From: a virus
Taxonomy: Duplodnaviria > Caudoviricetes
Reading direction: 5' to 3' (one strand)
Length of the DNA: 43,708 nucleotides
IMG/VR virus record: IMGVR_UViG_3300021066_000028
Span: 1 to 43,708 of that record
Shown: one piece after another, positions 12,143 to 33,493 of the stretch
How the letters are laid out: each line of letters begins with the position of its first letter
Numbering within the stretch: position 1 is the first letter of the stretch
The notes under the pieces: generated by a model
Seen by the model: only the letters and a program-made list of their open reading frames with translations
What the model was told of the DNA's origin: nothing
Database searches by the model: none
Translations under genes and position numbers: made by a program

Positions 12143-12170
12143 TTGACGACGGTGTGTTCGATGGTAGAAA
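12143..12170 (+). promoter_or_regulatory. Putative sigma70-type promoter overlapping TGACGACGGTGT box 1
   Basis: TTGACG-16 nt-TAGAAA; the box at 12144-12155 recurs at 13416 (reverse) and 33384. Confidence 0.5.
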
Positions 12171-12178
12171 CGGCGTAG

Positions 12179-12270
12179 GTTCGCTGAGTAAGAGCGAGCA
12201 AACTGTTTGGAGCCCTCCTGTTCCAACACTTGAAGCTCGTCGTGCTTACTCCACGGCGGGCTTCTTTGCT
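12179..12270 (+). ncRNA. Kissing-loop leader/attenuator, copy 1
   Basis: Hairpin TCGCT-GAGTAAG-AGCGA, then terminator-like AAGCTCGTCGTG-CTTACTC-CACGGCGGGCTT + T-rich tail; the two loops are complementary. Confidence 0.6.
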
Positions 12271-12272
12271 TT

Positions 12273-12491
12273 ATGACCACACAAAAGGAAAAGGAAGTGA
12301 CCGCGTTCCAGATGCTCAGAGCCTTTGCTGGCATTCTGGTCTATATCGGTACCTGTATTCTTCTGGCGCGCGTTGGCTGGGATATTGGTCAGCTTCTACG
12401 CCAAAGAGAGAAGGTCGCGGCGCTTGAGGCTGAGGTGAGGGCCCTGAGGGCTGGCGCGCCGGTCGTCATCACCAACGGAGGGCGGAAGTGA
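12273..12491 (+). CDS. Small membrane/coiled-coil protein (72 aa)
   Basis: One hydrophobic segment followed by a coiled coil; first gene of the + strand island. Confidence 0.5.
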   Translation: MTTQKEKEVTAFQMLRAFAGILVYIGTCILLARVGWDIGQLLRQREKVAALEAEVRALRAGAPVVITNGGRK

Positions 12492-12691
12492 AGCTTCTGC
12501 CCGCTGATATTTCAGCCACCACATGGAAGCGATGGTTTATGGGTGTGACCTGTGAGTTCAATCGGCCATGGCTGGTTGAGCCGACATCGCTATTTGGTTT
12601 TGCCCGCATCTACACCCCGCCCTTCCGCCTCAAGAACCTCCCGCCGATCGACGCGCCGAAGCGCAGGTTGGCGGATGAGCCTATGCCATGA
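12488..12691 (+). CDS. Hypothetical protein (67 aa)
   Basis: GTGA/ATGA coupling with both neighbours. Confidence 0.45.
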   Translation: MKLLPADISATTWKRWFMGVTCEFNRPWLVEPTSLFGFARIYTPPFRLKNLPPIDAPKRRLADEPMP

Positions 12692-13092
12692 CCGCCGACC
12701 TTTTCCGAGACACTTTCCTTCGCTTCTTGGCAGAAGGCATGACGCACGCTGAGGCGCTGGCCGAGTTTAACCGCGGCGAGTGGAACGAGGCGATGAACGC
12801 CGAGATCATGGAGGGTGGATCAAATCGTTCCGACTCCCTGCTGGACCTTGCGGCAAAGGCTGGATTCGAGGAGCGCAATCTTCGCGACTTGGACCAAGCA
12901 ATCGAGCTTTGGCAGGCAGGATGGACCAGCGAAGACCCTAATCCTCAGCGCGATCACTCGTGCTTCTGGAGCCAGAGCCAAGTGATGAGTTGGTATTGGC
13001 GGGCTCCAAGCAAGCGACCGGGTAAACCGGGCCGTCGCTACCTTTCAACAAATCAGGCTTTCAACGCCATGAAGAAGGCCGGCCAGCAATGA
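12688..13092 (+). CDS. Hypothetical protein (134 aa)
   Basis: Coupled ORF, Trp-rich C-terminal half. Confidence 0.55.
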   Translation: MTADLFRDTFLRFLAEGMTHAEALAEFNRGEWNEAMNAEIMEGGSNRSDSLLDLAAKAGFEERNLRDLDQAIELWQAGWTSEDPNPQRDHSCFWSQSQVMSWYWRAPSKRPGKPGRRYLSTNQAFNAMKKAGQQ

Positions 13093-13170
13093 AACGCCTC
13101 CGCCTCTTCAACTGGCGCGGCTACTGCAAGAACTGCGGTTGGCCCAAGAGTCTTTGCGGGTGCAGGTGAT

Positions 13171-13371
13171 ATGAGAAAACCATACCTGGTCGAGCTGATG
13201 AAGCAGTTCGGGACTTCAGGTCTAGGATCCGTGCAATCCGACCAACCGAAGCCGCTAAGTGCACGAAAGTGCGTGAAAACGCACACATGGACCACCAAGA
13301 AGTTCAACCGCCGCTGCTCTAAGTGCGGCGTCGAGGAGGATTTTAATTCCAGGACAAGAGAGTGGGAGTGA
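13171..13371 (+). CDS. Hypothetical Zn-binding protein (66 aa)
   Basis: C..H.W...RRCSKCG; preceded by a 26-aa four-Cys micro-ORF (13089-13169). Confidence 0.4.
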   Translation: MRKPYLVELMKQFGTSGLGSVQSDQPKPLSARKCVKTHTWTTKKFNRRCSKCGVEEDFNSRTREWE

Positions 13372-13390
13372 ATAGGCCTACAGTCTTTAG

Positions 13391-13427
13391 TTGACACACC
13401 TTAATCTTTTCCGCTACACCGTCGTCA
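13391..13427 (+). promoter_or_regulatory. Putative promoter with TGACGACGGTGT box 2 (reverse orientation)
   Basis: TTGACA at 13391, TACACC at 13415; ACACCGTCGTCA at 13416-13427. Confidence 0.5.
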
Positions 13428-13515
13428 GTTCGCGAGTTCAGCCGCGATGCAGCTTTCCGGGGAGACCCATTAAAGCCCGCCTTGTGGCTGAACTCACAGG
13501 CGGGCTTCCTCGTTT
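13428..13515 (+). ncRNA. Kissing-loop leader/attenuator, copy 2
   Basis: TCGCG-AGTTCAGC-CGCGA, then AAGCCCGCCTTGTG-GCTGAACT-CACAGGCGGGCTT; the two loops are complementary. Confidence 0.6.
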
Positions 13516-13532
13516 AGAGGGTGTTCTTTGAG

Positions 13533-14063
13533 ATCAGCAATGAAAGGGAGCGCAGACCGTAAGCGTTCGTCGTGGTCCGGCCGCGTAGCGACGACTCCCG
13601 ATGCTAACCTACCGAGCCCTTCGGTGGTCGAAAGCTGCCGCATCCATTGCTGATTTCAGAGAACCAAAGCCCACAAGCCGCGGAACGTAATCACTGGCGC
13701 AGGAGAGTAGCCGAAAGGCGAAGCACCCACGGGACCGGCGCTCAGGGAAGAACACGGGGGAAGAGTCTGGTCACGCGGACTCGGCGACACGGTGGTTCTT
13801 GGCCGGCACGAAGCCCGGTTTTGCTGCCAGTGCTGCCAGTGCAGATGGGTATGCGCAGCGTCCCGCCTCACCTCGAGGAACAGGACACCCGACATTGCAG
13901 GATCAGCCCTGCTATCCGCCGACATCTCCTCTGTTATGTCGGTTGTGGGGGCGTGTTATTGCGCGGTCACGTTCGCTTCCTCGGCGCCCGATTCGTCGCT
14001 TGGCTGACTTTTGGGTGATCGAACCAGTCAGACCGCGTTAGATAATAGAAACTATACGCCCCC
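13533..14063 (+). ncRNA. Putative structured non-coding RNA(s)
   Basis: No credible ORF; nested helices ATCAGCAATG/CATTGCTGAT (13533/13654), GGGGGCGT/ACGCCCCC (13947/14063), CGCGGTC/GACCGCG, CTGACT/AGTCAG, GNRA-capped GCCGAAAGGC. Confidence 0.45.
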
Positions 14064-14539
14064 GGCCTGGGCGAAAGGGAGGGGCGGGGCCGGCCAGGTG
14101 GTCGCCCAAACGTCACGCATTCCTTGCTCTCGCACGCGCGCACGTAGATTCGAGTCCAGATCTGCGCCGAACCTAGAGACGATCGGTAGGTTTCGCGTCA
14201 GTCGCAACAAGGTGTCGCAAGAAGGGAAATTTATGTGAGAGGGCAAAGTGGCAAACTGCCGATTGACAAGCACTTACGAAGACGAGCGCGCCACAACATC
14301 AACCAACACTCAAAAGTTAAAATAGCGATTTACGCAGCCTTGATGCGATGTGGTTGGCTATCGATCTGCAGGCCTCGAAATGCGGTGCGATTGCACGCAT
14401 GCGCGATGGGTTGGCGCTGTTGTGCTAGTCTTCCTGCCTTCTCCCATTCTCCCCTGCTTATCGCGTCACACTCGTGACATACTGCCGCTTACCCGTGACG
14501 CCACCCCGCAAGAGGTATGACGACGTCGTGTCGATGCGC

Positions 14540-14842
14540 TTATTGCCGCGGGGCCTGAATAGCCGCTCGAATCTCCTCTACCTCAATCACCTCGTCGGCC
14601 TTCTTCACGCGCACCCAATTCGGGTTCTGCGGGTGCCGCTCAAGGATGCCGCGCAGTTCGGCGTATTCAACAATCTCGGATAAAGCCGATTTCGTCTCCT
14701 CGTCGTACGCCACGTCTCGCCACCCATCCTCGACCAGTTGCTTGTCCGGCACATTGCAGCCGATCGACTCGATGTCGCTGAAAGCCCTTTCGTCGGCGAG
14801 TTTGATTGCGAGAGCGATGGTCTTGGGCGTGAGAGGATTCAT
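14540..14842 (-). CDS. Hypothetical protein (100 aa)
   Basis: Last ORF of the leftward replication operon; likely start MNPLTPKT. Confidence 0.5.
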   Translation of the reverse strand: MNPLTPKTIALAIKLADERAFSDIESIGCNVPDKQLVEDGWRDVAYDEETKSALSEIVEYAELRGILERHPQNPNWVRVKKADEVIEVEEIRAAIQAPRQ

Positions 14843-14944
14843 GCCGCGACTCAATCCTGCCTCCCTGCCGTGTTCAAGCGTCCGAATGGTCGCCAGCGAT
14901 GCTCCGACGCGACCACGGGCGCTTTAGAGCGATTGCGGGCCTGT

Positions 14945-16183
14945 TTAGCGGGTCCTCGCCAAGTCCGCGAACTGGAAGTGCTCGCCAACGTAAGCCACTT
15001 GGAGTTCTACACCGCTTCGACCGTTGCGTTGAACGAGCCGCAGCTTGCGGACACCGGGATCGTCCGCGAACTCGATGAAGACCACGGTGGTTGCATCCAT
15101 GCCGAGTGACCGCGATTCCCGAAGTTTGCCGTCGTCGTTCACCTGTGAAAGCAGGACAATGCAAATCTGCTGCTGCATGGACAGCTTGCGCAGGGTTCGG
15201 CTGATGATGGCCACCTCGCGCTCCCGGCTCTCGCCGCTGTGACCAACACCCAGGAGTTGCGCGTAGTCCACGAAGATCGCGAACAGGTCCGGGAATGCGG
15301 CTTTCATCTGCCGGGCGGTGCCGATCAGTTCCGCGAGGTCGAAGATGTCGTCCCGAAACATGATTGGCGCCGGCGCGAGCTTGGCTGCGGCTTGGGTTAG
15401 GTTCGGGAAATCTCGCTCGTTAAGGGTGCCGTCACGGGCCGCAGAGGCTGAGATGCGGCCGACCTGGCAGATCAATCGCTCCACGTTCTCCACGCTCGGC
15501 ATTTCGAGCCCGAAGAAGGCGCAACGTTTGTTGTGGGAGACGGCCAAGGAAGCGAGCAGCGTGGCCGCCAGCGAGCTTTTGCCGCCCTTGGCTGGCCCGG
15601 CGATCACCCATTGCGAGCCTTGGCGCAGACCGCCGGTCTCCCGATCGAGCGAGGGAATGCCCGTGGAGACTCCCGCCTCGTCCTGGTCATACCGCTTTTG
15701 CAGCCGGCCAATCGCTTCCTGCACGAGCGCCTTCATGGTCGGGGTTTTCTTTCGCGCGCGGTCCTGGCCGATCTCCTCAATGCCCGCCATCACGTCCGAG
15801 AGCGTTTTCGACACGTCGCAGCCGGGTCCCTGGATCTCGGCGAGCTTATCCCGCAGGAGCGCCGTGGCGCGCCGTTGGGCCGCCTTGTCCTTCACGGCCC
15901 GAACGTGCTCGTTCAGCGTGGCCGGCATGCTCGATTGCCCGAACAGCGTGGCGAGACGCCCTGCGCCCCCGGCGTCCTCGAGCTTCTGCTTATCCCGCAG
16001 CCGCCCGATGACGGAGGGTAGGTCGAAGTCCTGCCCTTCGCTGAACAGGCCCAGGATTTCCCGGTAAACGACGGCGTTGGGCGCGCTCAGGTGATCCGGG
16101 CGAATCTCGGAGCAAACGTAGGGTGTCGATTGCGCTGGAAAGGCCAGCAGGCTGGAAATGATCGCGTCTTCGTTTTCGGTCAT
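14945..16183 (-). CDS. dnaB: DnaB-like replicative helicase (412 aa)
   Basis: N-terminal DnaB domain (EDAIISSLL), VSTGIPSLD, Walker A AGPAKGGKS, FFGLEM, VDYAQL, LLSQVN, LRES. Confidence 0.9.
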   Translation of the reverse strand: MTENEDAIISSLLAFPAQSTPYVCSEIRPDHLSAPNAVVYREILGLFSEGQDFDLPSVIGRLRDKQKLEDAGGAGRLATLFGQSSMPATLNEHVRAVKDKAAQRRATALLRDKLAEIQGPGCDVSKTLSDVMAGIEEIGQDRARKKTPTMKALVQEAIGRLQKRYDQDEAGVSTGIPSLDRETGGLRQGSQWVIAGPAKGGKSSLAATLLASLAVSHNKRCAFFGLEMPSVENVERLICQVGRISASAARDGTLNERDFPNLTQAAAKLAPAPIMFRDDIFDLAELIGTARQMKAAFPDLFAIFVDYAQLLGVGHSGESREREVAIISRTLRKLSMQQQICIVLLSQVNDDGKLRESRSLGMDATTVVFIEFADDPGVRKLRLVQRNGRSGVELQVAYVGEHFQFADLARTR

Positions 16184-16905
16184 AGGAATGGGACTCCGGC
16201 GGTTCCTGGGATGCGCGGTGCGGAGTCGATCGGGATCATTTCATCCTCCCACCGCCGGGCATTCAGCCAAGAAGCAGGGAGCGGGATGTATTGACCTCCA
16301 TCCTTCAGCCAGTCCGGCGACTTTCTCTGCAAAGCGATGGCGTTGAGGATGACTGTGATGTCCACGCCTACTTTCTTCCACGCCTTCTCAGCATCAGCCT
16401 TGGCCCGCTTCTTCGGATAGGCTTGCCAGAAGATATCGAACTCCAAGGCCGACCTCCCCCGCCGACGAGTGTCGGGATCGTTGTCGGGATCGTTGTCGGT
16501 ATCGGTATCGGAGTCGGGAGCATCTGTATGCGGCTGCGTACAGATGTTTGCAGATGTTTGCGTCTGTAAACAAGTGCTCGCAGGCGGCGGGTCAGGGCAT
16601 TTGCTTGTAATCGCTCTACCTTGTTCCCATTTAGCCATTTGCAGGTATGCCTTGCCGTCAACGACGTAGAGACGAAGGAGCCCGGCTTGCTCGCAGTCAT
16701 GCAGCAAACGTGACACATCGGCCTCTCGGACCTGTTCTAGCTTTAATGGGAATAGTTTTGCGCGAAGGATCTTGGGGTGTGCTTCAATACGCCCAAAGTC
16801 GTCTACTTTTACGAGCAAGCGCGTCCAGAATGCCTCACCAATCCAACTCAGGGAATTGACGCGCTCGCTCTCAATGTAAGATTCTCGAAGGTATCGGTTG
16901 GGCAT
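16180..16905 (-). CDS. Phage replication initiator (241 aa)
   Basis: N-terminal MPNRYLRES..LLVKVDDFGR HTH region, low-complexity linker, C-terminal FDIFWQAYPKK..GQYIPLPASWLNARRWEDE; coupled to the helicase. Confidence 0.85.
   Translation of the reverse strand: MPNRYLRESYIESERVNSLSWIGEAFWTRLLVKVDDFGRIEAHPKILRAKLFPLKLEQVREADVSRLLHDCEQAGLLRLYVVDGKAYLQMAKWEQGRAITSKCPDPPPASTCLQTQTSANICTQPHTDAPDSDTDTDNDPDNDPDTRRRGRSALEFDIFWQAYPKKRAKADAEKAWKKVGVDITVILNAIALQRKSPDWLKDGGQYIPLPASWLNARRWEDEMIPIDSAPRIPGTAGVPFL
16471..16575. repeat. Iteron-like repeats inside the initiator gene (candidate ori)
   Basis: GTCGGGATCGTT x2 plus degenerate copies; CAGATGTTTG x2 (16541-16560) with an inverted CATCTGTA (16521). 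Confidence 0.45.
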
Positions 16906-16906
16906 A

Positions 16907-17056
16907 TTATTTCCAGGGGATGCCCGCGGCTTTCGCTAGGGCCTTGTGTTTTGCTTCAGCTTTGCGCCGAGCCTCACGCCATGCCTCTTCAGACGGCCAG
17001 CCGTGCGCCTTCCATGCCGGCACTGGCTCTTTTGGTTTGGGCTTTCGATCGCTCAT
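16907..17056 (-). CDS. Small basic protein (49 aa)
   Basis: MSDRKPKPKEP... fills the gap between neighbours. Confidence 0.4.
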   Translation of the reverse strand: MSDRKPKPKEPVPAWKAHGWPSEEAWREARRKAEAKHKALAKAAGIPWK

Positions 17057-17063
17057 AATCCTC

Positions 17064-17396
17064 TCACTCCTCTCTCCCCACCCGTTCGAACGCGCGGAGG
17101 GCTGCGCGCGCTTTGGCCCATTGCGCCGGTGCTCGGCTGGCGAGGTAGGGCAATGCGGCCTCCAGCGCCTCGTGCATTTGGCCCAGCAGGCGCTCCAGCT
17201 CCTCAGTACGCTCCTTGAGCCGTGTGAGGTAAACCAGTTGGTCAGCGGCCTCCTGCTGCGCGTGCTCGGCCCATTTGGAGGCAGGGAGTTGGTTATCGGC
17301 GACCGTGACGCCATACTTGGCGATGCCGAGCTGTTGGCGCTGGGCAATCAGTCGGCAGGCTTCCGCCTCGGTTCCGGTGGGCAGCGGGTCAGTCAT
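17064..17396 (-). CDS. Hypothetical protein, possibly MazG-like nucleotide pyrophosphohydrolase fold (110 aa)
   Basis: R..LG..KYG....W..HAQQEAAD..VYL helical pattern. Confidence 0.4.
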   Translation of the reverse strand: MTDPLPTGTEAEACRLIAQRQQLGIAKYGVTVADNQLPASKWAEHAQQEAADQLVYLTRLKERTEELERLLGQMHEALEAALPYLASRAPAQWAKARAALRAFERVGREE

Positions 17397-17892
17397 GGCG
17401 AAGGGTGATGGTCTGGCCGAGGTTCGCGGCCTTGAGGGTTTCAGCGTTCTCGATTCCGTAAGCGACGAGGCAGATAGGTGCGCCCGAGTTGAACGGCGCC
17501 CTTGTTCCGTCCACGTAGTGAAAATGCGGCCTGCCCTTCACGAAACACACCGCGGTCGCCTTCGGCCAAACATGCTCGAAAAACATGCGGGTTTCGGTCC
17601 GGGCTGGAATCAGCGCGATGCCGTTCCCGTGTTCAGCTAGCTTTGCCAACCACTTTGCGGCCTCGCTGCCGAACGGCGGGTTGCACCAGACACGCCCGGT
17701 CCATTCTTTACTCAAGCCGTCTTCAGCGATCGTAAAGTGATGCAGCGCCGTCGGCCATGGGCGCTTGATTGGCGCGCAGGGGTCCAGAACGAAGTCCCCC
17801 AGCGGCTTCAGGATCTCCGGCGGAGTCAGCCACTCGTCATTCTTCATCCGGGCTGATTGATGGCCCGAAAGGCTCTTTCTCGCCTCACTCAT
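17389..17892 (-). CDS. Phage DNA N6-adenine methyltransferase (167 aa)
   Basis: DEWLTPP, LDPCA, DGLSKEW..VWCNPPF, LIPARTET. Confidence 0.88.
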   Translation of the reverse strand: MSEARKSLSGHQSARMKNDEWLTPPEILKPLGDFVLDPCAPIKRPWPTALHHFTIAEDGLSKEWTGRVWCNPPFGSEAAKWLAKLAEHGNGIALIPARTETRMFFEHVWPKATAVCFVKGRPHFHYVDGTRAPFNSGAPICLVAYGIENAETLKAANLGQTITLRHD

Positions 17893-18964
17893 TCGCCGGG
17901 CCTCCCGATGGCTGAGATTGCGGCTTGGATGAACTCCGCGGCGACTTGCGGAACGATTGCATTGCCGTAGCCCCGCAGGAGTCCCACGCGGCCGGGTATC
18001 CCATGAGCCAGCGGGAATGAGCCGGGTTCAACGCGCCGCGCTTTTCCGTCGGTACAGTGGACGAGCTCGCAGGCACTCCAATGACCATGACCGCCTGCTG
18101 TGAGAGCGGGACGCCCGTGTCGGTTGGTCGCGGCGGCTTGTCGCCCCTGCTGTGGTCCTGTGCTGTTGGCGACACCCATCCCGCAAGTTTCATTGTCTTC
18201 CGGCTCGAGTCCGTGTTCCCGGCCGGATTGTAATCCTCCGTTCCCGCATTGCCCGCCATCGGTGTTGGCCACCCCGCCAATGCCGCATCCGCTGGCAACG
18301 CTCCTCCCGCTTGGTTCGGCCCACCGTTGCTGCCGTCCGTTGCTCTCGGCGTGTTCCAGCCGCACAACGTCGCTGCATCTTGGAGATTCACCGAGTGCCC
18401 GCCCGCCTTGCGCTTCGCTGGATCTTGCGGTCCTCCCCGGGTGTTCGTGTCCGGTGTCGGCCAACCCACTAATTGCGCTGCAATCTGCAAAGGCATCCCC
18501 GCTCCGTTCCCGTTCCCATGCTTCGCCTTCAGCTCCGTCGCTCGCTCCTGCCAAGACTCGAGCGATTCGCCCAAGTTCATGGCATTCGCGTCCGGAGTAG
18601 GCCAGCCAGTAGAGCCGTTGTCGGATGTGCGGAGCGCCGAGGCCCGCAGCGCAGAGATCGGCTGCTGCCCTTCGATAGCCCATTCCTTCCAGGTCAGCGA
18701 ATACTCCGGCGAGCCATAGGCGGCCATCCTTGCTCGCAACCTGCTCGCCAAACAAGATTGCAGGTCGTCGGGCGTCGATGAGTCGCGCGAAGCTCGGCCA
18801 AAGGTGCCTTTCGTCCCGCATCCCTTGGCCTTTCCCCGCCGCGCTAAACGGCTGACAGGGACAGGAACCAGTCCAAACCGGAACGCTGTCTGGCACGCCG
18901 GCGAGTCGGAGGGCGTAGCTCCAGCCGCCGATCCCGGCGAAGAAATGGCATTGAGTGAATCCAT
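17885..18964 (-). CDS. Overprinted C5-methyltransferase beta subunit/TRD (359 aa, alternate frame)
   Basis: Five GW(P/N/V)(T/S)P repeats and motif IX-like LNPAHSRWLMGYP, in a different frame within the alpha gene. Confidence 0.7.
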   Translation of the reverse strand: MDSLNAISSPGSAAGATPSDSPACQTAFRFGLVPVPVSRLARRGKAKGCGTKGTFGRASRDSSTPDDLQSCLASRLRARMAAYGSPEYSLTWKEWAIEGQQPISALRASALRTSDNGSTGWPTPDANAMNLGESLESWQERATELKAKHGNGNGAGMPLQIAAQLVGWPTPDTNTRGGPQDPAKRKAGGHSVNLQDAATLCGWNTPRATDGSNGGPNQAGGALPADAALAGWPTPMAGNAGTEDYNPAGNTDSSRKTMKLAGWVSPTAQDHSRGDKPPRPTDTGVPLSQQAVMVIGVPASSSTVPTEKRGALNPAHSRWLMGYPAAWDSCGATAMQSFRKSPRSSSKPQSQPSGGPANE

Positions 18965-19103
18965 GAAGGTCAGTCGGTGAGATGTCGGTAATCGATCGCT
19001 CGTCCACGACGCCGGGAGCGATCAGCCCGGCCTTGATGAGTTCCCTGAGCCAGGCGGCCGCTTTCGGGTCGTTCTCGTTGTAGAAAGCGACCAGCTCGCT
19101 CAT
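17889..19103 (-). CDS. DNA C5-cytosine methyltransferase, alpha subunit (404 aa)
   Basis: Motif I FFAGIGG, IV GSCPCQPFS, VI EQV, VIII HIRQRLY, X GNAIVPQVA; no motif IX in this frame. Confidence 0.88.
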   Translation of the reverse strand: MSELVAFYNENDPKAAAWLRELIKAGLIAPGVVDERSITDISPTDLHGFTQCHFFAGIGGWSYALRLAGVPDSVPVWTGSCPCQPFSAAGKGQGMRDERHLWPSFARLIDARRPAILFGEQVASKDGRLWLAGVFADLEGMGYRRAAADLCAAGLGAPHIRQRLYWLAYSGRECHELGRIARVLAGASDGAEGEAWERERSGDAFADCSAISGLADTGHEHPGRTARSSEAQGGRALGESPRCSDVVRLEHAESNGRQQRWAEPSGRSVASGCGIGGVANTDGGQCGNGGLQSGREHGLEPEDNETCGMGVANSTGPQQGRQAAATNRHGRPALTAGGHGHWSACELVHCTDGKARRVEPGSFPLAHGIPGRVGLLRGYGNAIVPQVAAEFIQAAISAIGRPGE

Positions 19104-19261
19104 TTACTCCCTTCCATGCGGGCTAGGAGCCAGCGCATCAGCTTCAGGAGGGACCGCTTCCATTTCGGAATGGCCAACTCAGCTTTCGCGGCTTCATTTT
19201 GCTCTTCGTTATAGACGCCGGCCTTTCCGTCCGGGTCGATATATCGGTCTCCGTCTTTCAT
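19100..19261 (-). CDS. Small hypothetical protein (53 aa; not in the ORF track)
   Basis: MKDGDRYIDPDG...ARMEGSK, ATGA-coupled to the MTase start. Confidence 0.4.
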   Translation of the reverse strand: MKDGDRYIDPDGKAGVYNEEQNEAAKAELAIPKWKRSLLKLMRWLLARMEGSK

Positions 19262-19283
19262 AAGTGTTATCCAGCGAGCTCGC

Positions 19284-24174: not shown

Positions 24175-24176
24175 GG

Positions 24177-24959: not shown

Positions 24960-24964
24960 GGGAT

Positions 24965-25192: not shown

Positions 25193-25447
25193 CGGTGTTC
25201 GGGTTCGGGTTCGTCTTCGGTCAATGATTTCAGGTATTCGGCTCGCTCCTCAGCCTCCGCTTCAGCCGCTGCCTGCTCCTCAAGCCATTCGCGGTAGCAT
25301 TCGTAGTCTCGAACGCTGGCGCTCACGGCCTCCGCAGCCAGGAGACCAAGCCAGCCACTGCGATCAATGCCGCGCAGAACGCGACCGGCAGCAGCACGCG
25401 GTAAAGGCGGCGATGGCTCCAGGCGTAGGATTGGGGTCTGTGAGGGT

Positions 25448-26352: not shown

Positions 26353-26395
26353 AATAAGCTCGGTTGCGAGTGTGAGTTTCTGAGGATGGTTTGCA

Positions 26396-27025
26396 TTAGG
26401 CGGCTAGCTTTTGGGGTTTTATCCGCTCCAGCGCGGCGTCGAAATCGCGGTAGAACCTCGCGAGGCATTGCCCGATCTTATCCATCCACTGCTCGTCTCG
26501 CTTGATGACGAGGTGGAACGGCGGCAGCTTCCGGCAGTAGGACAAGAAGTGCCACTCCGCGCGGCCGGTGACGTAGAGGCTCCCGTAGACCTGGCACCAA
26601 TACTCGTTCGGCAAGGTGCCGTTCAGGAGATACTTGATATGGGTCTCCGGATTCGGGCACTTGATTTCCAGCCCGGAGTCTTCGCCTATCAGCGCGTCTG
26701 GAGAGCATCCACAGCGGCCATCGTCGCCGACCACGAAGCCGACTCGATACGTCTCAAGGTCGAACTCCATCTCAAAGAACGGGATTGCCTCCTCCTCCAT
26801 GACGATACCCTGTTCCGTGGCGCGGCTCGTGAATCCCGGGAGCGGGCCCCAAGTCACTTCGGCGAGCTTCTTCGCAAGGTACGTCTTTGGCATCTCGCCG
26901 GTACGCGGTTCGAAACTGTTCGTCATGAAGTCGGCGAACCCGCTCGCGGTGGGACGGCCAAGGTGCAGCCGCATCCACTCACTTGAGCCCTGCTCGGCTT
27001 CTTGCTCGGAGTAGACCTTAGGCAC
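26396..27025 (-). CDS. YqaJ/lambda-exonuclease family recombination nuclease (209 aa)
   Basis: EQGSSEW..LHLGRPTAS, G...EEEA, GCSPDALI, LEIKCP, Y.CQV. Confidence 0.9.
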   Translation of the reverse strand: MPKVYSEQEAEQGSSEWMRLHLGRPTASGFADFMTNSFEPRTGEMPKTYLAKKLAEVTWGPLPGFTSRATEQGIVMEEEAIPFFEMEFDLETYRVGFVVGDDGRCGCSPDALIGEDSGLEIKCPNPETHIKYLLNGTLPNEYWCQVYGSLYVTGRAEWHFLSYCRKLPPFHLVIKRDEQWMDKIGQCLARFYRDFDAALERIKPQKLAA

Positions 27026-27764
27026 GGGCCTTAGCCTCCCGCTCCTTCAGCTTTGCGTCGGCTCGCTCCCAATCGCTGGCGCGGATGCTTTCGAAGCCGG
27101 ATGCGCCGAGCCAGCGGCAGAACTTCGCCATGTCGGTGCTGGTTTCCTCGCACCGAAGCCGCAAGTCGGCAGCCTGCTCCTTCGTAATGGTGTCGCCGCT
27201 GTCGGCATCGCGACCATCTGAGTCCTGCTCGACGACGATGTTTAGCGCTGCGCACAGGGCAAACCGCTTGGCATAGGTGGTCGCCGCTCCGTCGCCTTGA
27301 GCCTCACTGGATCCTGGCGGGCCTTTGCCGATGCGGGCGCCCTGCTTATTTGACCGAGAGTGTCCGCTGCGGTGGATCAGCGTGCAGGTAACCTCGACAC
27401 GGGGTTCCTTGATTTCCGTGTCGAAGGTCACAGCGAAGCCATGCCGTGCGAGGAAAGGCTGCACCTGCCGCATGATCTCTTCGTAGGGAGCATATCTATA
27501 GCGCACCTCGTCTTGCCGACTACCCGGCACGATCTTTTTAGCCTCAATCTTTGGCATTTCAGCCTGGAGATCGGCGAAGGCATCTGCGAACAAGCGCTCC
27601 GCCTCGCGTTTGTCCTCGCGCTCCTTCAGCGCAACAATGCGCTCTAGAACATCTACGTTCTGCCCAGTGATGCCGCCCTGCACAACGGCGGCGAGAAGCT
27701 GTCCGGTGCTGGGCGTGACCTGCTGTTGCGGTTCAATGACCGCGAGTGGTTGAGTGGTGTTCAT
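27018..27764 (-). CDS. erf: ERF-family single-strand annealing protein (248 aa)
   Basis: YRYAPYEEI...L..HG, TLIHRSGH, G.A.TYAKRFALCAALNI..EQDSDG. Confidence 0.85.
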   Translation of the reverse strand: MNTTQPLAVIEPQQQVTPSTGQLLAAVVQGGITGQNVDVLERIVALKEREDKREAERLFADAFADLQAEMPKIEAKKIVPGSRQDEVRYRYAPYEEIMRQVQPFLARHGFAVTFDTEIKEPRVEVTCTLIHRSGHSRSNKQGARIGKGPPGSSEAQGDGAATTYAKRFALCAALNIVVEQDSDGRDADSGDTITKEQAADLRLRCEETSTDMAKFCRWLGASGFESIRASDWERADAKLKEREAKARA

Positions 27765-27767
27765 AGG

Positions 27768-28208
27768 TTAAAATGGTTCGTCCCGAACGACTGCGTCCAA
27801 GTCGGGGTCAGCCTGCGGTCTGGGCGGTGCTTTCGGTTGCGGCTTCGGCTGCTGAGCTGCCGGCGGCCGGTCGTCCTTCCCGCCGAGAAGCTGCATCTGG
27901 TCGGCGACAACCTTCATCTTCGACCGCTTCGTGCCGCTCTGTTTATCGTCCCACGTTTCGAGCTTCAGGCGTCCCTCAATGAAAACCGGCTTACCTTTCT
28001 TCACGTATTCGCCGATGATTTCGGCGAGTCGGCCCCATGCCTCGATGTCCACGAAGGTGACCTCTTCACGCTTCTCGCCAGCCTCCGTCTTGTAGCTGTG
28101 ATTGATGGCGAGACCGAACTGGCAGACGGCCTTTCCGCTCGGGATGAACTTAACCTCTGGCTCCCTGGTGCAATTACCAATGAGCATTACTTTATTTAGA
28201 TTTGGCAT
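27768..28208 (-). CDS. ssb: Single-stranded DNA-binding protein (146 aa)
   Basis: NKVMLIGN.TREPE, VFIEGRL..ETW.DK, acidic DEPF tail. Confidence 0.95.
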   Translation of the reverse strand: MPNLNKVMLIGNCTREPEVKFIPSGKAVCQFGLAINHSYKTEAGEKREEVTFVDIEAWGRLAEIIGEYVKKGKPVFIEGRLKLETWDDKQSGTKRSKMKVVADQMQLLGGKDDRPPAAQQPKPQPKAPPRPQADPDLDAVVRDEPF

Positions 28209-28232
28209 GTTAAAAGTGCTGACTCGAACGTG

Positions 28233-28577
28233 TTAAGCCGCGAACGCCATTGGCGGAACGTTGGCTTTGGCGACAGCGGTTGGCGGCTCAACGCCAGTAA
28301 TCCGGATGTTCACGCCATCGACGACCTTGCTCCAGTGGACCCGGCCACCGGCTTCCTCAGAGGTCCACGAGTCGCGTCCGAAAATGGTCCCGGCTTCGCG
28401 GATGATTTCTCGGCGGCGACTGAACGGAATGTCCGCCACGATGACGAAGGTCAGCGATTCCGGGTAGAAGAGCCCGAGAGACTCGGGCACCTGATGGGAC
28501 CATTTGCGCGCCCAGGCGTCCGCGATTTCAAATCGAGTGCGGAGTGCTTCCAGTGGTTGAAGAATTCGGAGGTTCAT
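28233..28577 (-). CDS. Hypothetical protein (114 aa)
   Basis: ATG with A-rich upstream sequence; precedes ssb. Confidence 0.5.
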   Translation of the reverse strand: MNLRILQPLEALRTRFEIADAWARKWSHQVPESLGLFYPESLTFVIVADIPFSRRREIIREAGTIFGRDSWTSEEAGGRVHWSKVVDGVNIRITGVEPPTAVAKANVPPMAFAA

Positions 28578-28672
28578 AGGTTTGGTGTTTTATTTCTTCA
28601 CAGGGCTCACCGCCGGGTCCGTGGCCCTCCCCGGTCGGTGGTTCCCCATCTCGTCTGCTACATGAAGGAGGT

Positions 28673-28822
28673 GCGAGCGGAGCGGCTATCTCGGGTCGTT
28701 GCGGCTTTGGAGACTGCGACCCTATCCGTAGTTGCCGGAACCGATACTTTGTTGGGCGTCGCGCTTGGAAAGCGGTTAGCCTTGGTCAGAACGCCGCGCA
28801 TCTGCGCTGCTGGTCCGCTCGC
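28673..28822 (-). ncRNA. Putative structured RNA module
   Basis: Closed by a 9-bp GCGAGCGGA/TCCGCTCGC helix; internal GGGTCG/CGACCC and GCGC hairpins. Confidence 0.4.
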
Positions 28823-28831
28823 GTTTAAAAA

Positions 28832-29054
28832 GGTGACAGCGGGCCGGACGCTAACCCGGCTATTTGAGACCTTCAGCAGTGGGCGCAGTCTCTTCGTGCC
28901 TTGGCTATACGCCGCAGTGTGCCGGACCAAATCGCTCGCACCAACAGGGGCTAAGTCTTTCAGCCAATCCCCATGCGCACGATCCAGATACCCGGTAGTA
29001 ACCCCGGAGTTCCCACACTTCCGAGCGTGGCAGCTTTCCACGCATCCGCTGTCA
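28832..29054 (-). ncRNA. tRNA-like RNA with a long insert replacing the anticodon arm
   Basis: TGACAGCGG/CCGCTGTCA acceptor-like stem followed by CC; D-like GCGTGG-AAAGCTG-CCACGC; T-like GCCGG-GTTAGCGT-CCGGC; begins 1 nt after the tRNA-Arg CCA. Confidence 0.55.
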
Positions 29055-29055
29055 T

Positions 29056-29133
29056 TGGCGTCAACGGCAGGACTCGAACCCGCATCTTTCCGAGGTAGAA
29101 TCTCGGTGCTCTCTCCGGTTGAGCTACGCTGAC
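29056..29133 (-). tRNA. tRNA-Arg (TCT)
   Basis: Acceptor GTCAGCG/CGTTGAC, G73, CCA; D arm GCTC/GAGC with GGA (A20); CCGAG-ATTCTAC-CTCGG; GCGGG-TTCGAGT-CCTGC. Confidence 0.85.
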
Positions 29134-29139
29134 AAATAG

Positions 29140-29259
29140 TAGCCACGCGCTCAGCCCCAACACGGAGCCGACCGCCGCCCTGTTTTGCGATCCGATCGGT
29201 CAAGATCAGACAGGGCAACTCCTCGGTAGGGAGCGGGAAAATTGTGGTTTTCATGGCTA
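29140..29259 (-). ncRNA. Putative structured RNA module upstream of tRNA-Arg
   Basis: Closed by TAGCCATG/CGTGGCTA (its G-U pair is valid only on the minus strand); internal GCCCTGT/ACAGGGC. Confidence 0.35.
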
Positions 29260-29559
29260 GTCTCCGTATCGCTCTTCGTATTCCTCGTTCGTGATGAGCG
29301 TTGCGACGCCGGGAGCGAGGTTGATGTCTGGGAAGCCTGTCTTCTGAAGTTTGCGCGCCATCTCAGCGTATTCTTCGAGTGAGCCCATCGGGTCTCTGGT
29401 AATTCCGCCCAGCTTGAAGCGGATGCCTGCGAGGTCGCTGGGGTCTTCACAGAAGCCCGGGGCCTCCAATATGATAGTCACGCTTTTCTCGTCGTAATCG
29501 ACGAGGCAGCCGAGGAGGGAATGCTTGCCAGTCAGCGGAGTAGTTATCTTCTCGCTCAC
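29257..29559 (-). CDS. Hypothetical protein (100 aa)
   Basis: Coupled early ORF. Confidence 0.5.
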   Translation of the reverse strand: MSEKITTPLTGKHSLLGCLVDYDEKSVTIILEAPGFCEDPSDLAGIRFKLGGITRDPMGSLEEYAEMARKLQKTGFPDINLAPGVATLITNEEYEERYGD

Positions 29560-29756
29560 TTCGCACCTCCGTTCAGCGGCTTCCAGCGGAAGGCCCGCTC
29601 GTGCTTCTCATTCAGGTAGTATTCGGCGTGGCCGGTTTCGACGGCGCAGCGTTCAGACTCATGGCGAGCCTGTCGCTTTCCTGATTCGCAACTAATGTCG
29701 CCAACTATTAGGCACGCGCCAACAAGCACGCAAAGACTGGCGAAGAAGCCGCTCAT
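29556..29756 (-). CDS. Small membrane protein (66 aa)
   Basis: N-terminal hydrophobic segment; AVETGHAEYY..FRWK motif. Confidence 0.5.
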   Translation of the reverse strand: MSGFFASLCVLVGACLIVGDISCESGKRQARHESERCAVETGHAEYYLNEKHERAFRWKPLNGGAK

Positions 29757-30145
29757 CGCGCATCCTCCGTGACGGTGCAGGGGTGCCAGGTGACTCGGTC
29801 GGTGGAGTATCTTACCGTGTCGATCTGGCTCCAAAGCCAAGTAGCGATCATGTCTAATCCGGCGTATTGAATGCCGCGGCTATCAAAACCAATCACCATT
29901 ACGTCGCCTCCAGGGAGCCTTAGCCAGCAAACCGGCCCCGGCACATCCTCCGGCTTGCTCCACGCCCGCGTCACCGGCTTCGGCGCGATTCGGTAGTCGA
30001 AGCCGAGGGCCCAGTCCGGCGCTGAGGTCAGATGCCATGGGTCGCCAGTATCGCCAGTATCGCCGTGAATGCGATATTCAACATCGGCTCCATTGGCATA
30101 CGCCTCGATAATCGGCAGCAGTTCTTTCGCTCGGGTTCGGGTCAT
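29753..30145 (-). CDS. Hypothetical phage protein (130 aa)
   Basis: LLPIIEAYANG..VEY...PDW...YRIAPKP pattern. Confidence 0.6.
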   Translation of the reverse strand: MTRTRAKELLPIIEAYANGADVEYRIHGDTGDTGDPWHLTSAPDWALGFDYRIAPKPVTRAWSKPEDVPGPVCWLRLPGGDVMVIGFDSRGIQYAGLDMIATWLWSQIDTVRYSTDRVTWHPCTVTEDAR

Positions 30146-30146
30146 G

Positions 30147-30410
30147 TTAGCGGGTGGGTTGGGCGGCTTGGGTGCTGACTCGCTGCTTCGCGGCGTCCAG
30201 ATCGACGCCCCAGAACAGGCTCACAAACTCCCGAGCGTCGTTTTCGGTGAGTCGCAGCCCGCGTATCCCCCGCCGACGAATCGGGACAACCAGCGGTTGC
30301 TTGCGCCCGGGCAGGAAGTTCGGTTTCTCCGCCTCATTGATCGCGGCGTAGATGACCGACGGTGTCTTGCCGGTGATGTCCACAAGTTGCGGAACGCTGT
30401 AGAAGCTCAT
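30147..30410 (-). CDS. Excisionase-like winged HTH (87 aa)
   Basis: FYSVPQLVDITGKTPSVIYAAI...RRGIRGLRL; second gene of the leftward operon near attP. Confidence 0.55.
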   Translation of the reverse strand: MSFYSVPQLVDITGKTPSVIYAAINEAEKPNFLPGRKQPLVVPIRRRGIRGLRLTENDAREFVSLFWGVDLDAAKQRVSTQAAQPTR

Positions 30411-30414
30411 GGGG

Positions 30415-30585
30415 TTATCGGGTGGATTTCTGTTTCCTCGGCACAGCGGCGCGGCGACCGAGGTGTTTGCGGATCGCGCGGCGGTAGATGTCAGACACCG
30501 AAAGCCCCTCCTCTTGTGCCTCCTCCTCTAGGGCCTTCAGCCATGCGTCCGGAATCCGGAACCGCGCTTCAGCGTCGTATTGCAT
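30415..30585 (-). CDS. Ribbon-helix-helix regulator A (Cro-position, 56 aa)
   Basis: ARFRIPDAWLKALEEEAQEEGLSVSDIYRRAIRKHL, a CopG/Arc pattern. Confidence 0.75.
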   Translation of the reverse strand: MQYDAEARFRIPDAWLKALEEEAQEEGLSVSDIYRRAIRKHLGRRAAVPRKQKSTR

Positions 30586-30688
30586 GTCACACGATGTATT
30601 ACAACGTAAGACGGCGTGCAACACCTTTTTGTTACTTCGGTGAAATTTGTAATTCCAAACCTAGAAAATGTGTCACAACGTGAGACAC
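30586..30688. promoter_or_regulatory. Divergent promoter/operator region
   Basis: Two related 18-mers, TGTATTACAACGTAAGAC (30595) and TGTGTCACAACGTGAGAC (30669); leftward TTGCAC-17-TACATC ends 7 nt before the ATG. Confidence 0.55.
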
Positions 30689-30907
30689 GTGAAGAATCAA
30701 AAGAAACCCGAAGCGAAGAGGGTGACAATCAACGCGCGAATCCCGAAGGATCTCTATGACGAGTTCCTTGCGTGCGCGATGGATGAGGAGGAGCGCGACA
30801 ACGATTCGCTCTTGCTGAGGAGGGCGCTCCGAGTGTTCATCGACAGTCGAGACCCGAAGAAAGTGCGCGCTGCTGAACTCAAGAAACGGAACGAGGAAGC
30901 GATTTGA
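30689..30907 (+). CDS. Ribbon-helix-helix regulator B (CI-position, about 72 aa)
   Basis: KRVTINARIPKDLYDEF..CA......SLLLRRALRVFI; GTG start at 30689 (alternative ATG 30668). Confidence 0.65.
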   Translation: MKNQKKPEAKRVTINARIPKDLYDEFLACAMDEEERDNDSLLLRRALRVFIDSRDPKKVRAAELKKRNEEAI

Positions 30908-31037
30908 GCGTCAGGCGCGTTCTGCGCGCCTTGGCGAATTGGATCATGACACGGATCGCAAGCACGTCCGGCTTGCACCCAAAGCGATCCGCCAGCTTGA
31001 GAAGCTCCCGCGGAATGCGGACAGATTTTGTTTTCAT
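30879..31037 (-). CDS. Ribbon-helix-helix-like protein C (52 aa; not in the ORF track)
   Basis: MKTKSVRIPRELLKLADRFGCKPDVLAIRVMIQF. Confidence 0.45.
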   Translation of the reverse strand: MKTKSVRIPRELLKLADRFGCKPDVLAIRVMIQFAKARRTRLTLKSLPRSVS

Positions 31038-31152
31038 ACCTGGAGGCAATTTCGCAGCTTCAGCCCCGCTTGAGAACTGTACGCAGTGTCACACTGGGTG
31101 TGTCGGTGTACACCTCGCTTGTGAATAACTTTCCCGCAGACCATAACTCCGC

Positions 31153-31512
31153 ATGGCCAAACGTGTCGCAATCACCCTCTCCGACGATCTTTTCGAGGTC
31201 ATGGAGATCCTCCGCAAGCGCCGAAAATACCGGACGCCGAGCGAATACATCCAGGGCCTGATCCGCTACGACGGCCAGTCCCAAAAGGAGCACCACCTCA
31301 CGGCAGAATGGGCGGCGATAACCGGATACGAGCGGGATCGATTGGACGCCGGCATTTTGAATCTTGTCAAAACCGGCAAGGGGCGACTCGGCTCGTGGCT
31401 CGAAGCGCGAATCGAGGCGATCGTGAAGGAGCAACTTGCGGCCGGGAAGACGCCAACCAAAAAGGCGGTTGCTCAGGCTCTCGCGGAAGAAATCGCGAAA
31501 GACGCGGACTAG
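31153..31512 (+). CDS. Ribbon-helix-helix regulator D (119 aa)
   Basis: MAKRVAITLSDDLFEVMEILRKRRKYRTPSEYIQGLIR. Confidence 0.7.
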   Translation: MAKRVAITLSDDLFEVMEILRKRRKYRTPSEYIQGLIRYDGQSQKEHHLTAEWAAITGYERDRLDAGILNLVKTGKGRLGSWLEARIEAIVKEQLAAGKTPTKKAVAQALAEEIAKDAD

Positions 31513-31675
31513 GGGTTTCCGGGCACGGGGAGACGCGGGGGAGGAGTGAGGTATTTTCATGCGGAACCCCAGGGTTCGCAGCAAGGAACACGCGCGCAGC
31601 ACAGAAAGTTTTCGTTATCGCGCGCCTATTTCTACGTAGGTGAATACCCGCCCATTCATTTGCGTGAACGACTTC

Positions 31676-31908
31676 AGCCCCATTGTAAGCCCCACGTTTC
31701 CCATTGAATGCTGCATTCAACAGTGTTCCACAGCCATGCGTCAATAGACTCAAAATCTGGTGTCCCGAAAGGACGTGTGGGTTCGAGCCCCTCCGTCGGT
31801 ATCATATCCTCCGGTGCGCCTCTTGTGAAATTGGCTTGAGGGTTGCGCGAGTGTCCGGAGCGAGTAATAAGTCCAGCATGGAATCGCCAGCCCCACGCCA
31901 GCCCCACG
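31676..31908. repeat. Integrase arm-type repeats flanking the att core
   Basis: AGCCCCA(T/C) at 31676 and 31688; tandem CCAGCCCCACG at 31887 and 31898. Confidence 0.55.
31746..31804 (+). mobile_element. attP core = 3' half of tRNA-Leu(CAA)
   Basis: AGA-CTCAAAA-TCTGG, long variable arm GTCCCGAAAGGAC, T arm TTCGAGC, acceptor 3' strand CGTCGGT-A; no 5' half present; directly upstream of the integrase. Confidence 0.85.
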
Positions 31909-33026
31909 CTAGACAGAAGCGAACGGAGCCGTCGAAGGTCAGATTTCACGGACGAGACTACCCGCTCCTCTTCGAGCCTCAAGGCTGGCGGCTCCGGTCA
32001 CGGGCCAAAACACACAGAGCCGATTACCGCACCGGCACATGCAGCCTGATGATCGCGAAGGAGCGCGCTCTGCAATGGCTCCAGGAACATGAAGGCGTTT
32101 CTGAGCCAAAGAAGGGTGGCGGGAACTTGGATGCGCTGACACAACTCTACCTCTCCGCCCCGAAAACCGCGGCAGATCGCGCCGCAAAGGTGAACGTCTA
32201 TCGTCTTCGGACAATCTGCCGCAAGTCGCTCGGACGCGAGCTCGATGCTGTCACGGCGCGAGAAGTCGGGCCCGACCTTTGGGTCGCGTACCAGCGCGCC
32301 TGCATCACGGACCTCGGCGGCAAGCTCGATTACGCCACGCGGCGCCGGGAGAACATCACGATCAACTCTGCGATTCGCCTTGCGCGATCGATCTTCATTC
32401 CTCCGCTCATCCGCATCTACGAAAAGGCCGGCTTCAGCTTCCGGAGCGATTGCAACGAAACCGTGATGCGCCTACCGGAGCCAGAGATTACGCCGGCTAA
32501 GATTGATGACACGTCGATGCTTACGGCCTGGGCGAAGCTGCGCAAAGCGGATATCGCTCTTTGGCTGGTCGTCGGAATCGCTCGCTTCGCCGGCCTACGT
32601 CGGGACGAAATCAAAGCATGCCGGGCCGGCTGGCTTGAGGGCGGAGATATCGTCTTGCGCGATCGGCCGGAGGAGGGTTTCCAAACCAAGACGGGCAAAA
32701 GCTGGCGGGCACCAGTCATCAACCCTGAACTGCGCGCCTATCTCGAGGATTTTGCGGCGACCAATCCGCCAGACACGCCCGTCGTTCCGGATCCAAAAAT
32801 GCAGATGCGCGCATGGTGGTTTGAACGGGTTCCACAGGATTGGTTGAAAAAGCACGGCATTATCGACCAGAAGCCGCTCCATCGACTCCGCAAGCTCTAC
32901 GCCGACCACCAGCGCGAACTGATGCACGAATTGCTTGATCGCGAAGCGAAGGGCGTGAAGGCCGCGCAAGATGCCCTCGGGCACACAACTCCAGCGACCA
33001 CAAAGCGCAGCTACCTTTCGCGCTGA
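31878..33026 (+). CDS. int: Tyrosine integrase (382 aa)
   Basis: AGLRRDEI (R), TKTG (K), HRLR, LGH, C-terminal Y; ATG at 31878 downstream of attP. Confidence 0.92.
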   Translation: MESPAPRQPHARQKRTEPSKVRFHGRDYPLLFEPQGWRLRSRAKTHRADYRTGTCSLMIAKERALQWLQEHEGVSEPKKGGGNLDALTQLYLSAPKTAADRAAKVNVYRLRTICRKSLGRELDAVTAREVGPDLWVAYQRACITDLGGKLDYATRRRENITINSAIRLARSIFIPPLIRIYEKAGFSFRSDCNETVMRLPEPEITPAKIDDTSMLTAWAKLRKADIALWLVVGIARFAGLRRDEIKACRAGWLEGGDIVLRDRPEEGFQTKTGKSWRAPVINPELRAYLEDFAATNPPDTPVVPDPKMQMRAWWFERVPQDWLKKHGIIDQKPLHRLRKLYADHQRELMHELLDREAKGVKAAQDALGHTTPATTKRSYLSR

Positions 33027-33376
33027 TGCCCTACGAACCCGAAAAGCAGAAGGCGTATCTGAAGGCCTACTACGAGCGCCGGAGGAGTGATCCAGCGTTC
33101 ATCGCGGCGAGGACGGCAAACAAACAGGCGCAGCGGGCCACGCCAGAGGGTCAGGCGAGAGAAATCGAGATCGACCGCAAGCGCCGGGAAAGGAAGAAGC
33201 CGACGCACGCATTCCGCCGCTTCAACCTCGACGACGAGACCGACGCAGCCGCCTACCTCGCCTTTCTCCGGCTTCTCACCGCCGGCTCCGTGAAATACAC
33301 CGAGCGAGTCCGGGGAACGAATGTTACAGTGACCGTTCTCAAGGTCGACATGGCCCGGCTGCAAAGAAAATCTTGA
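33026..33376 (+). CDS. Hypothetical basic protein (116 aa)
   Basis: TGATG coupling to int. Confidence 0.55.
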   Translation: MPYEPEKQKAYLKAYYERRRSDPAFIAARTANKQAQRATPEGQAREIEIDRKRRERKKPTHAFRRFNLDDETDAAAYLAFLRLLTAGSVKYTERVRGTNVTVTVLKVDMARLQRKS

Positions 33377-33400
33377 CCCGGTTTGACGACGGTGTAGAAG
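33373..33400 (+). promoter_or_regulatory. Putative promoter containing TGACGACGGTGT box 3
   Basis: TTGACC-16-TAGAAG with the box at 33384-33395. Confidence 0.5.
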
Positions 33401-33406
33401 AAAGAC

Positions 33407-33493
33407 GTTCGCAACTGCTACTGCGTTCAACGATTTCGCTCAAAGAGAAGCCGCTGGATCGAAGGTAGCAGTTCGCCAGCGGCTTTTCGCTTT
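33407..33493 (+). ncRNA. Kissing-loop leader/attenuator, copy 3
   Basis: CGCA-ACTGCTAC-TGCG, then AAGCCGCTGG..GTAGCAGT..CCAGCGGCTTTT; the two loops are complementary. Confidence 0.6.

Follow-up and report, generated by a model that had tools for sequence, protein, structure and literature searches.

Three phage leader RNAs with mutually complementary hairpin loops: candidate kissing-loop attenuators with variable loop letters

A 43,708-nt stretch of DNA from a virus of the Caudoviricetes (IMG/VR record IMGVR_UViG_3300021066_000028; the whole stretch is called the window below) raises the question of whether three short leader RNAs, each built of two hairpins with mutually complementary loops, form a genuine class of element, and what the pairing between the loops would do. 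The initial annotation had described three such leaders behind candidate promoters, with loop sequences that differ completely between the copies while staying complementary within each. The sequence comparisons reported here indicate that the element class is real and uncatalogued in Rfam, with a function that is predicted only. We give about an even chance to the reading that the elements are promoter-proximal, ligand-free, cotranscriptional kissing-loop attenuators.

Each element consists of a promoter-like site, a 5' hairpin (hairpin 1, with loop L1) and then a long terminator-like hairpin (hairpin 2), the loop of which (L2) is complementary to L1 over 7-10 nt. All three were found where they had been placed, starting at 12179, 13428 and 33407 on the plus strand, and the three loop pairs are indeed exact complements, with Watson-Crick runs of 7 nt in copy 1, 10 nt in copy 2 and 9 nt in copy 3. 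The plus strand is taken as the folded strand because G-U pairs occur in the stems, and the fold z-scores are -4.6, -4.1 and -2.5 for copies 1, 2 and 3, respectively. Hairpins 1 and 2 have similar stem ends, and these stem ends are all that is common across members, the loops sharing no sequence; in copy 1 and in a homologue from the complete phage G002 (see below) the flanks differ and complementarity is restricted to the loops. When all loops were compared with all others, the cognate L1:L2 pair was the strongest duplex in every row and column, with copies 1 and 2 partly cross-pairing (-6.7 and -5.1 versus -9.0 kcal/mol for the cognate pair of copy 1). This orthogonality is real, but it is also what independent drift gives, and addressing is not shown by it, given that orthogonality is expected of any unrelated loops and that partial pairing occurs between copies 1 and 2.

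The bare two-hairpin architecture is not rare, since a loose descriptor (two hairpins with complementary loops) gave 2.24 matches per shuffled window. With a T-rich tail added, the loose descriptor gave 0.36 matches per shuffle and 1 of 288 shuffles reached three, and a strict descriptor, the thresholds of which were chosen post hoc with the elements already seen, found three matches in the window versus 0.02 per shuffle, none of 294 shuffles holding a match with a promoter-like site. The hexamer GTTCGC at the predicted RNA starts is by itself unenriched in the window (48 occurrences versus 44 expected).

To look beyond the window, viral sequences were scanned for GTTCGC together with the base of hairpin 2, a pattern that left the loops unspecified. 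One of the 41 loci that it gave, L176:2001-2086 in the complete phage G003, carries a new loop pair, GGTCTCA/TGAGACC, with a 7-nt complement, as compared with 10 of 1624 mismatched pairs from that set. This member also has a promoter-like site and a hairpin 1 and shares the downstream sequence of copy 2, and it constitutes the one out-of-sample test of loop complementarity, which was passed. G003 and the window have cro-like, cI-like, Erf and SSB genes in common, and their virion genes are not shared. A variant with a fifth pair, CTTGCAC/GTGCAAG, lies at L202:985-1101 (minus strand) in G002 (terminase identity 49%); its tail has 7 T in 8 nt, a C5 DNA methyltransferase is encoded directly behind it, and it is on the same strand as the lytic genes of G002. 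There are thus five different loop pairs in three phages, in agreement with the claim that the loop letters change and complementarity is kept, and the out-of-sample homologue, together with the absence of a match to the elements in an Rfam 15 search (gathering and E-value thresholds), supports a conserved leader RNA with selected loop-loop pairing that belongs to no named family. Judged from these sequences, only the loop pairing is shown as a selected feature.

Two further relatives preserve parts of the arrangement. In L150, the terminase of which is 98% identical, copy 1 is present with the same loops and its promoter-like site is kept with changes in the spacer; the linker hairpin is also changed and is stronger than in copy 1 (-7.9 to -13.9 kcal/mol), and ~900 other bases stand in place of the copy-2 cassette. 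In G001 (L133:3024-3110) the promoter and hairpin 1 of copy 3 are kept, hairpin 2 is absent and an endonuclease VII gene directly follows. A weak hairpin that covers the start codon of this gene contains 7 nt complementary to the L1 of G001, a post hoc observation that 1% of random 60-nt windows match, and the arrangement is possibly a translation-level version of the switch.

Table 1. Coordinates of the leader elements and associated features in the window
Feature	Position	Strand	Remarks
Copy 1 promoter-like site	12143-12170	+	TTGACG, 16 nt, TAGAAA; ends 8 nt 5' of predicted RNA start
Operator-like 12-mer TGACGACGGTGT	12144-12155	+	over -35 region of copy 1
Copy 1 hairpin 1	12179-12199	+	L1 GAGTAAG at 12186-12192
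Copy 1 linker hairpin	12204-12228	+	
Copy 1 hairpin 2	12232-12272	+	13 bp, T-rich tail; L2 CTTACTC at 12245-12251; terminator-like
Four small open reading frames	12273-13371	+	first starts at 12273; after copy 1, against lytic direction
Copy 2 promoter-like site	13391-13420	+	TTGACA, 18 nt, TACACC; ends 7 nt 5' of predicted RNA start
Operator-like 12-mer TGACGACGGTGT, reversed	13416-13427	-	between -10-like box and +1 of copy 2
Copy 2 element	13428-13515	+	L1 13434-13443; small GNRA hairpin in linker; hairpin 2 13473-13507; L2 13486-13495; weak tail
Copy 2 downstream cassette	13508-13664	+	small hairpin, boxA-like GTTCTTTGAG (13523-13532), 19-bp stem around ~100 nt non-coding; z -5.2
TGACGACGGTGT copy with two mismatches	14518-14529	+	exact at corresponding place in L150
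Ribbon-helix-helix cro-like gene	30415-30624		PF01402
Integrase	31704-33026		
Copy 3 promoter-like site	33373-33400	+	TTGACC, 16 nt, TAGAAG; ends 6 nt 5' of predicted RNA start; kept in G001
Operator-like 12-mer TGACGACGGTGT	33384-33395		within copy 3 promoter-like site
Copy 3 element	33407-33493	+	L1 33413-33421; hairpin 2 33447-33486; L2 33465-33473; then tail
Copy 3 downstream cassette	33486-33657	+	small hairpin, boxA-like GTTCTTTGAG (33507-33516), ~19-bp stem around ~110 nt; z -5.9
HNH endonuclease-like gene	33750-34421	+	first open reading frame 3' of copy 3; PHROG 144 and others, best E 3.5e-9

The family is sparse in the sequences reached, because ~0.64 Mb of SSB-related sequence and nine terminase-related loci held no convincing member. 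The descriptor scans behind this statement covered nine terminase-related metagenome or viral loci besides L150, 25 viral loci related through SSB (367,755 bases) and another 20 stretches (273,175 bases) from ten of these SSB-related phages, and the few rows that they returned were coding-looking sequence or had no promoter-like site; an exact-pattern search of 21 records of SSB-related phages gave two chance-looking matches. One SSB-related phage has a tandem 42-nt repeat (L239:15919-16034), each unit of which is a hairpin with a self-complementary loop. Viral contigs were also scanned with a fixed first loop of 10 nt; among the 119 matches listed was one that reached 7 nt (L042), which was rejected as a member by eye because the match lies in the arm and not in the loop. 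G001 alone was relevant among the 24 loci found with the operator-like 12-mer plus GTTCGC, and a scan for the boxA-like stem found G003 alone. The window integrase as query had no relatives, a scan of genome contigs gave a single weak and unrelated locus, and distant blastn of INPHARED phages with the copy-2 region gave no match. A covariance model, as proposed in the initial annotation, was built from six sequences in a MAFFT alignment with the kiss not modelled and was searched over 927,342 bases. Its additions were only plain terminators at gene ends in three SSB-related phages, with 3-4-nt loops and U6 tails; in copy 2 and G003, hairpin 2 shares the sequence of its basal stem with these terminators.

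In the mechanism that we propose, transcription would start at the GTTCGC positions and L1 would capture L2 as L2 leaves the RNA polymerase. The L1:L2 kiss would delay the closing of the stop hairpin 2, and the polymerase would then read through the weak U-tract into the downstream genes or non-coding cassette; when the kiss does not prevail, termination would take place at hairpin 2. The control point would be the availability of L1, or the speed of the polymerase. Because the loops are perfect and variable, without a conserved ligand pocket, the elements are probably ligand-free. Folding probabilities, which come from a nested model only, are consistent with such a sequence of events: with the 3' arm of hairpin 2 not yet made, the probability of L1:L2 pairing is 0.93-1.0 in all five members, and at full length the terminator wins in four of the five.

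The closest mechanistic precedent, which the initial annotation had not named, is the guanidine-IV riboswitch of the mepA leader, where a loop that kisses the terminator loop impedes the terminator and leads to read-through (PMC11611296, PMC10907184; these and the other papers cited here, except PMC2864571, are represented by excerpts). The expression logic is alike, and the elements are not members of that family. In both, a 5' hairpin and an intrinsic terminator of one leader are joined by a kiss between their loops, and kiss and terminator compete during transcription, although here this is predicted. The elements described here differ in that the loop letters are fully variable, with no Rfam match and no conserved ligand nucleotides, that the kiss is a perfect 7-10 bp, and that small open reading frames, non-coding cassettes, HNH and C5 methyltransferase genes lie downstream rather than a guanidine exporter. 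According to the excerpt of PMC10907184, perfect kissing loops of 5-7 bp generally form without ligand, and the ligand dependence of the kissing loop in the cobalamin riboswitch is due to a bulge.

Other known systems resemble the elements in part. The P1/P7 c4-a1b1 RNA shares a short hairpin at +1, ~7 nt behind the -10 box, and stem ends of the GUCGC...GCGAC type, but there a second small hairpin abuts the first, as judged by eye, whereas here a 17-32-nt linker and a long terminator-like hairpin follow (PMC2864571). P4 CI is a stem-enclosed RNA further along its transcript, an arrangement that copies 2, 3 and G003 share (PMC4825925); in contrast to both P4 CI and P1 c4, L1 and L2 here pair with each other and not both with a third RNA, and the Rfam search found no match to C4 (RF01695) in the elements. 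IsrK of Gifsy-1 is likewise a phage promoter with a short leader, an intrinsic terminator and partial read-through into downstream genes, but it acts on orf45-anrP translation via a long complementary stretch, no such open reading frame pair occurs here, and a kiss onto the terminator loop is not described in the excerpt (PMC4825925). In attenuators of the pT181 type, too, recognition takes place at the loop of a 5' leader hairpin, the letters of which determine specificity, and a terminator follows; their partner loop is on a separate antisense RNA, whereas here it is the terminator's own loop in cis, and their first hairpin holds an antiterminator sequence, whereas the corresponding rod here is not above shuffles (PMC3753616). 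Minus-strand promoter sites matching at 9/12 positions occur behind copy 3 at 33609 and 33574 (1.2 expected there), and none near copies 1 and 2. HK022 put, which the initial annotation had also named, binds RNA polymerase through a pair of neighboring stem-loops, and the resulting antitermination is processive. A literature search gave no account of such a phage element, nor of one under 'zipper-type' attenuators, most subscription journals and bioRxiv supplements being outside its coverage.

Because copies 2, 3 and G003 continue into stem-enclosed sequence, the gates would control non-coding cassettes as well as genes. All three cassettes have the order small hairpin then GTTCTTTGAG, which we take to be boxA-like, followed by stems of 18-21 bp around inserts of ~100 nt that are unrelated to each other and match no Rfam family; the z-score of the G003 cassette is -7.0. 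In rrn leaders a long processing stem follows boxA. The boxB hairpin-boxA order of these leaders is like that seen here (PMC8632103), but the insert is ~100 nt and different in all three, and GTTCTTTGAG is a putative boxA by sequence likeness. The initial annotation had offered antisense-RNA address targets, akin to P4 CI or P1 C4, as one explanation of the loops, and no support for this was found. In the antisense test that defines those systems none of the enclosed RNAs was complementary to flanking sites beyond the level of shuffles, the smallest shuffle fraction being 0.07 among 27 comparisons (three RNAs against six leaders and three downstream stretches), and the best partners of the loops elsewhere in the window were unremarkable by inspection and look like chance, ~6 kb of the phage lying outside the window. 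A 7-nt antisense match between the G003 insert and its own L1 was rejected, as it was equalled by 86% of shuffles. After the boxA-like stems, at 13665-14020 and L176:2240-2970, come several hundred bases that are GC-rich, foldable and apparently non-coding, with no Rfam match, and these are possibly arrays of further small RNAs. The start of the enclosed sequence of copy 2 (13542-13557) resembles the ribosome-binding region behind the G002 element (L202:963-978, minus strand) over ~15 nt, which may be chance or a trace of common origin.

At the level of initiation, all five members have a TTG-16/18-TA site ending 6-8 nt before the predicted RNA start, an arrangement found at 0.43% of window positions; the gap between the -10-like hexamer and GTTCGC had been put at 7-10 nt and is corrected here to 6-8 nt. 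The operator-like 12-mer TGACGACGGTGT, which like the boxA-like stems had escaped the initial annotation, occurs exactly three times in the window, once per promoter. Seven 12-mers occur three times in the window, compared with 0-5 in shuffles, and since such 12-mers are not rare, the evidence for TGACGACGGTGT is its placement at the promoters. G001 and L150 retain the 12-mer; G002 and G003 lack it. The shared 12-bp box suggests a second, protein-level control of initiation, with a binder postulated from the sequence. The ribbon-helix-helix proteins of the window are not obvious binders, because a tblastn search of G001 with these genes gave no match. Between 33026 and 33376, ahead of copy 3, lies a gene for a 116-aa arginine-rich protein, the stop codon of which overlaps the copy-3 -35 box and the G001 version of which is 90% identical; family searches with it gave no match, and it is a candidate binder of the 12-bp box or of RNA.

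The window forms part of a 49,527-base contig from a soil metagenome run, its possible source, and reads as a temperate phage, judged from the integrase, the cro-like gene and the gene layout. Replication, recombination and virion genes are on the minus strand, and the three elements are all on the plus strand, opposite to the direction of the lytic genes. The four small open reading frames behind copy 1 have no PHROG or Pfam match, and an Rfam search of the window gave two tRNAs and nothing else; with the elements searched by themselves, no score came close to a gathering threshold. The immunity region at 30415-31512, which is common to G003, seems to employ small ribbon-helix-helix-like proteins, with repeated GTGACA words, instead of a lambda-type repressor. 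In the early operon, at 28600-29135 (minus strand), tRNA-Arg(UCU) is followed by ~450 nt that are structured and apparently non-coding, with the tRNA as the only Rfam match. A G/C-rich motif of ~25-40 nt at 14054-14095, upstream of the late genes, recurs in L148, L150, L151, L156 and L158 and is conserved among terminase relatives down to ~44-52% protein identity; it may be a late-promoter, packaging or terminator site.

Several results weigh against the attenuator reading. The G002 member provides no independent test, because its descriptor demanded complementarity. The -10-like hexamers are without the usual last T, and for this reason a strict sigma-70 scan lists none of the three window copies; the promoter-like sites of tRNA-Met (12103-12131, minus strand) and of the cro-like gene (30592-30620, minus strand) lack it as well, so this may be a host trait, as if the polymerase of the host did not need it. 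The intrinsic terminator is partly supported by the sequence. The initial annotation had given each copy a terminator-like hairpin with a T-rich tail, and the terminator tool called copy 1 and did not call copies 2 and 3. The 8 nt after the last G-C pair hold 5, 4 and 5 T in copies 1, 2 and 3, respectively, and tails of only 4-5 T are found in four of the five members (copies 1-3 and G003). In copy 2 the minimum-energy fold is the extended L1:L2 duplex and not the terminator. An antiterminator rod formed by arm swap was rejected as a selected feature, and a designed rod is unsupported, since sequestration of the 5' arm by the native stems did not exceed that in stem-shuffled controls, 500 for each member (fractions 0.10-0.90). 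By a rough estimate of the geometry, the reach of the linker is 59-106 Å against a coaxial span of 70-78 Å, and the kiss and a complete hairpin 2 can coexist in four of the five members, whereas steric exclusion is proposed for guanidine-IV in the excerpted accounts; the effect would therefore have to be kinetic. Finally, no input signal was found, as neither the enclosed RNAs nor the best loop partners elsewhere in the window gave one.

Some of these results fit other explanations. The product could be the short terminated RNA itself, a stable species of ~85-90 nt, as the rough geometry leaves room for the kiss alongside both stems in four of five members, the terminator state wins at full length in four of five, the three window copies run opposite to the lytic genes, and IsrK is a phage leader acting as a small RNA (PMC4825925). 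We consider this fairly unlikely: no member of the five is free-standing, each being followed immediately by genes or a structured cassette, the G002 member is on the same strand as the lytic genes, and a decoy or small RNA should keep a conserved surface, whereas only the stem ends are common. Distinctly unlikely in our judgment is an address-coded feedback in which the terminated leader, or a hairpin-2 fragment, would offer L2 in trans to a new L1, block the cis kiss and promote termination, and we are equally doubtful that each operon would be expressed in a burst when a naive cell is entered and would then silence itself without regard to the other two operons. Loops that are orthogonal within one genome favor such feedback, the methyltransferase and nucleases downstream would suit transient expression, and the excerpted precedents are the short isoform of IsrK, which acts in trans on its own read-through, and the antisense-driven termination of P4 CI (PMC4825925). 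However, orthogonality is the default for unrelated 7-mers, there is partial cross-pairing of copies 1 and 2 at the energies given above, the loops of an intact terminated RNA can pair with each other in cis, and the enclosed RNAs yielded no separate antisense RNA.

The kiss could also have the opposite sign and promote termination by pre-organizing the large terminator loop, with a phage protein or RNA that captures L1 opening the gate. Hairpin 2 has loops of 7-10 nt, bulged stems and weak tails and may need help, and the kissing loop of the cobalamin riboswitch is an off state (PMC10907184); but in the excerpted account the one characterized kiss onto a terminator's own loop works in the opposite direction (PMC11611296), and in copy 2 the extended L1:L2 pairing destroys the terminator, so we regard this version as very unlikely. 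That the loop pairing is functionless, whether due to chance or left over from an inverted duplication that made hairpin 2 out of hairpin 1, would accord with the ~2 matches of the loose descriptor per shuffled window and with the similar stem ends of the two hairpins. It is made extremely improbable by the strict null of 0.02 per window, by the out-of-sample member with new loop letters and by the differing flanks of copy 1 and G002, where the loops alone are complementary.

A kiss onto a terminator's own loop has been reported, in the excerpted accounts, for the ligand-driven guanidine-IV; here it is predicted at three places in a single phage, and also in two further phages, with the loop letters free. 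Freely changing loop letters point to a ligand-free control element that is absent from Rfam. The three natural versions, each of ~90 nt and mutually non-pairing, permit a loop-swap test of which way the kiss affects termination and of whether it can act in trans, and the three leaders would be ready-made orthogonal parts for RNA circuits. As an outside chance, phages may carry a class of ligand-free, address-coded attenuators in which the terminated leader feeds back in trans on transcripts of the same code. If that were true, each operon would have its own RNA timer, without a protein or a separate antisense gene, and related phages would gain RNA-level compatibility groups.

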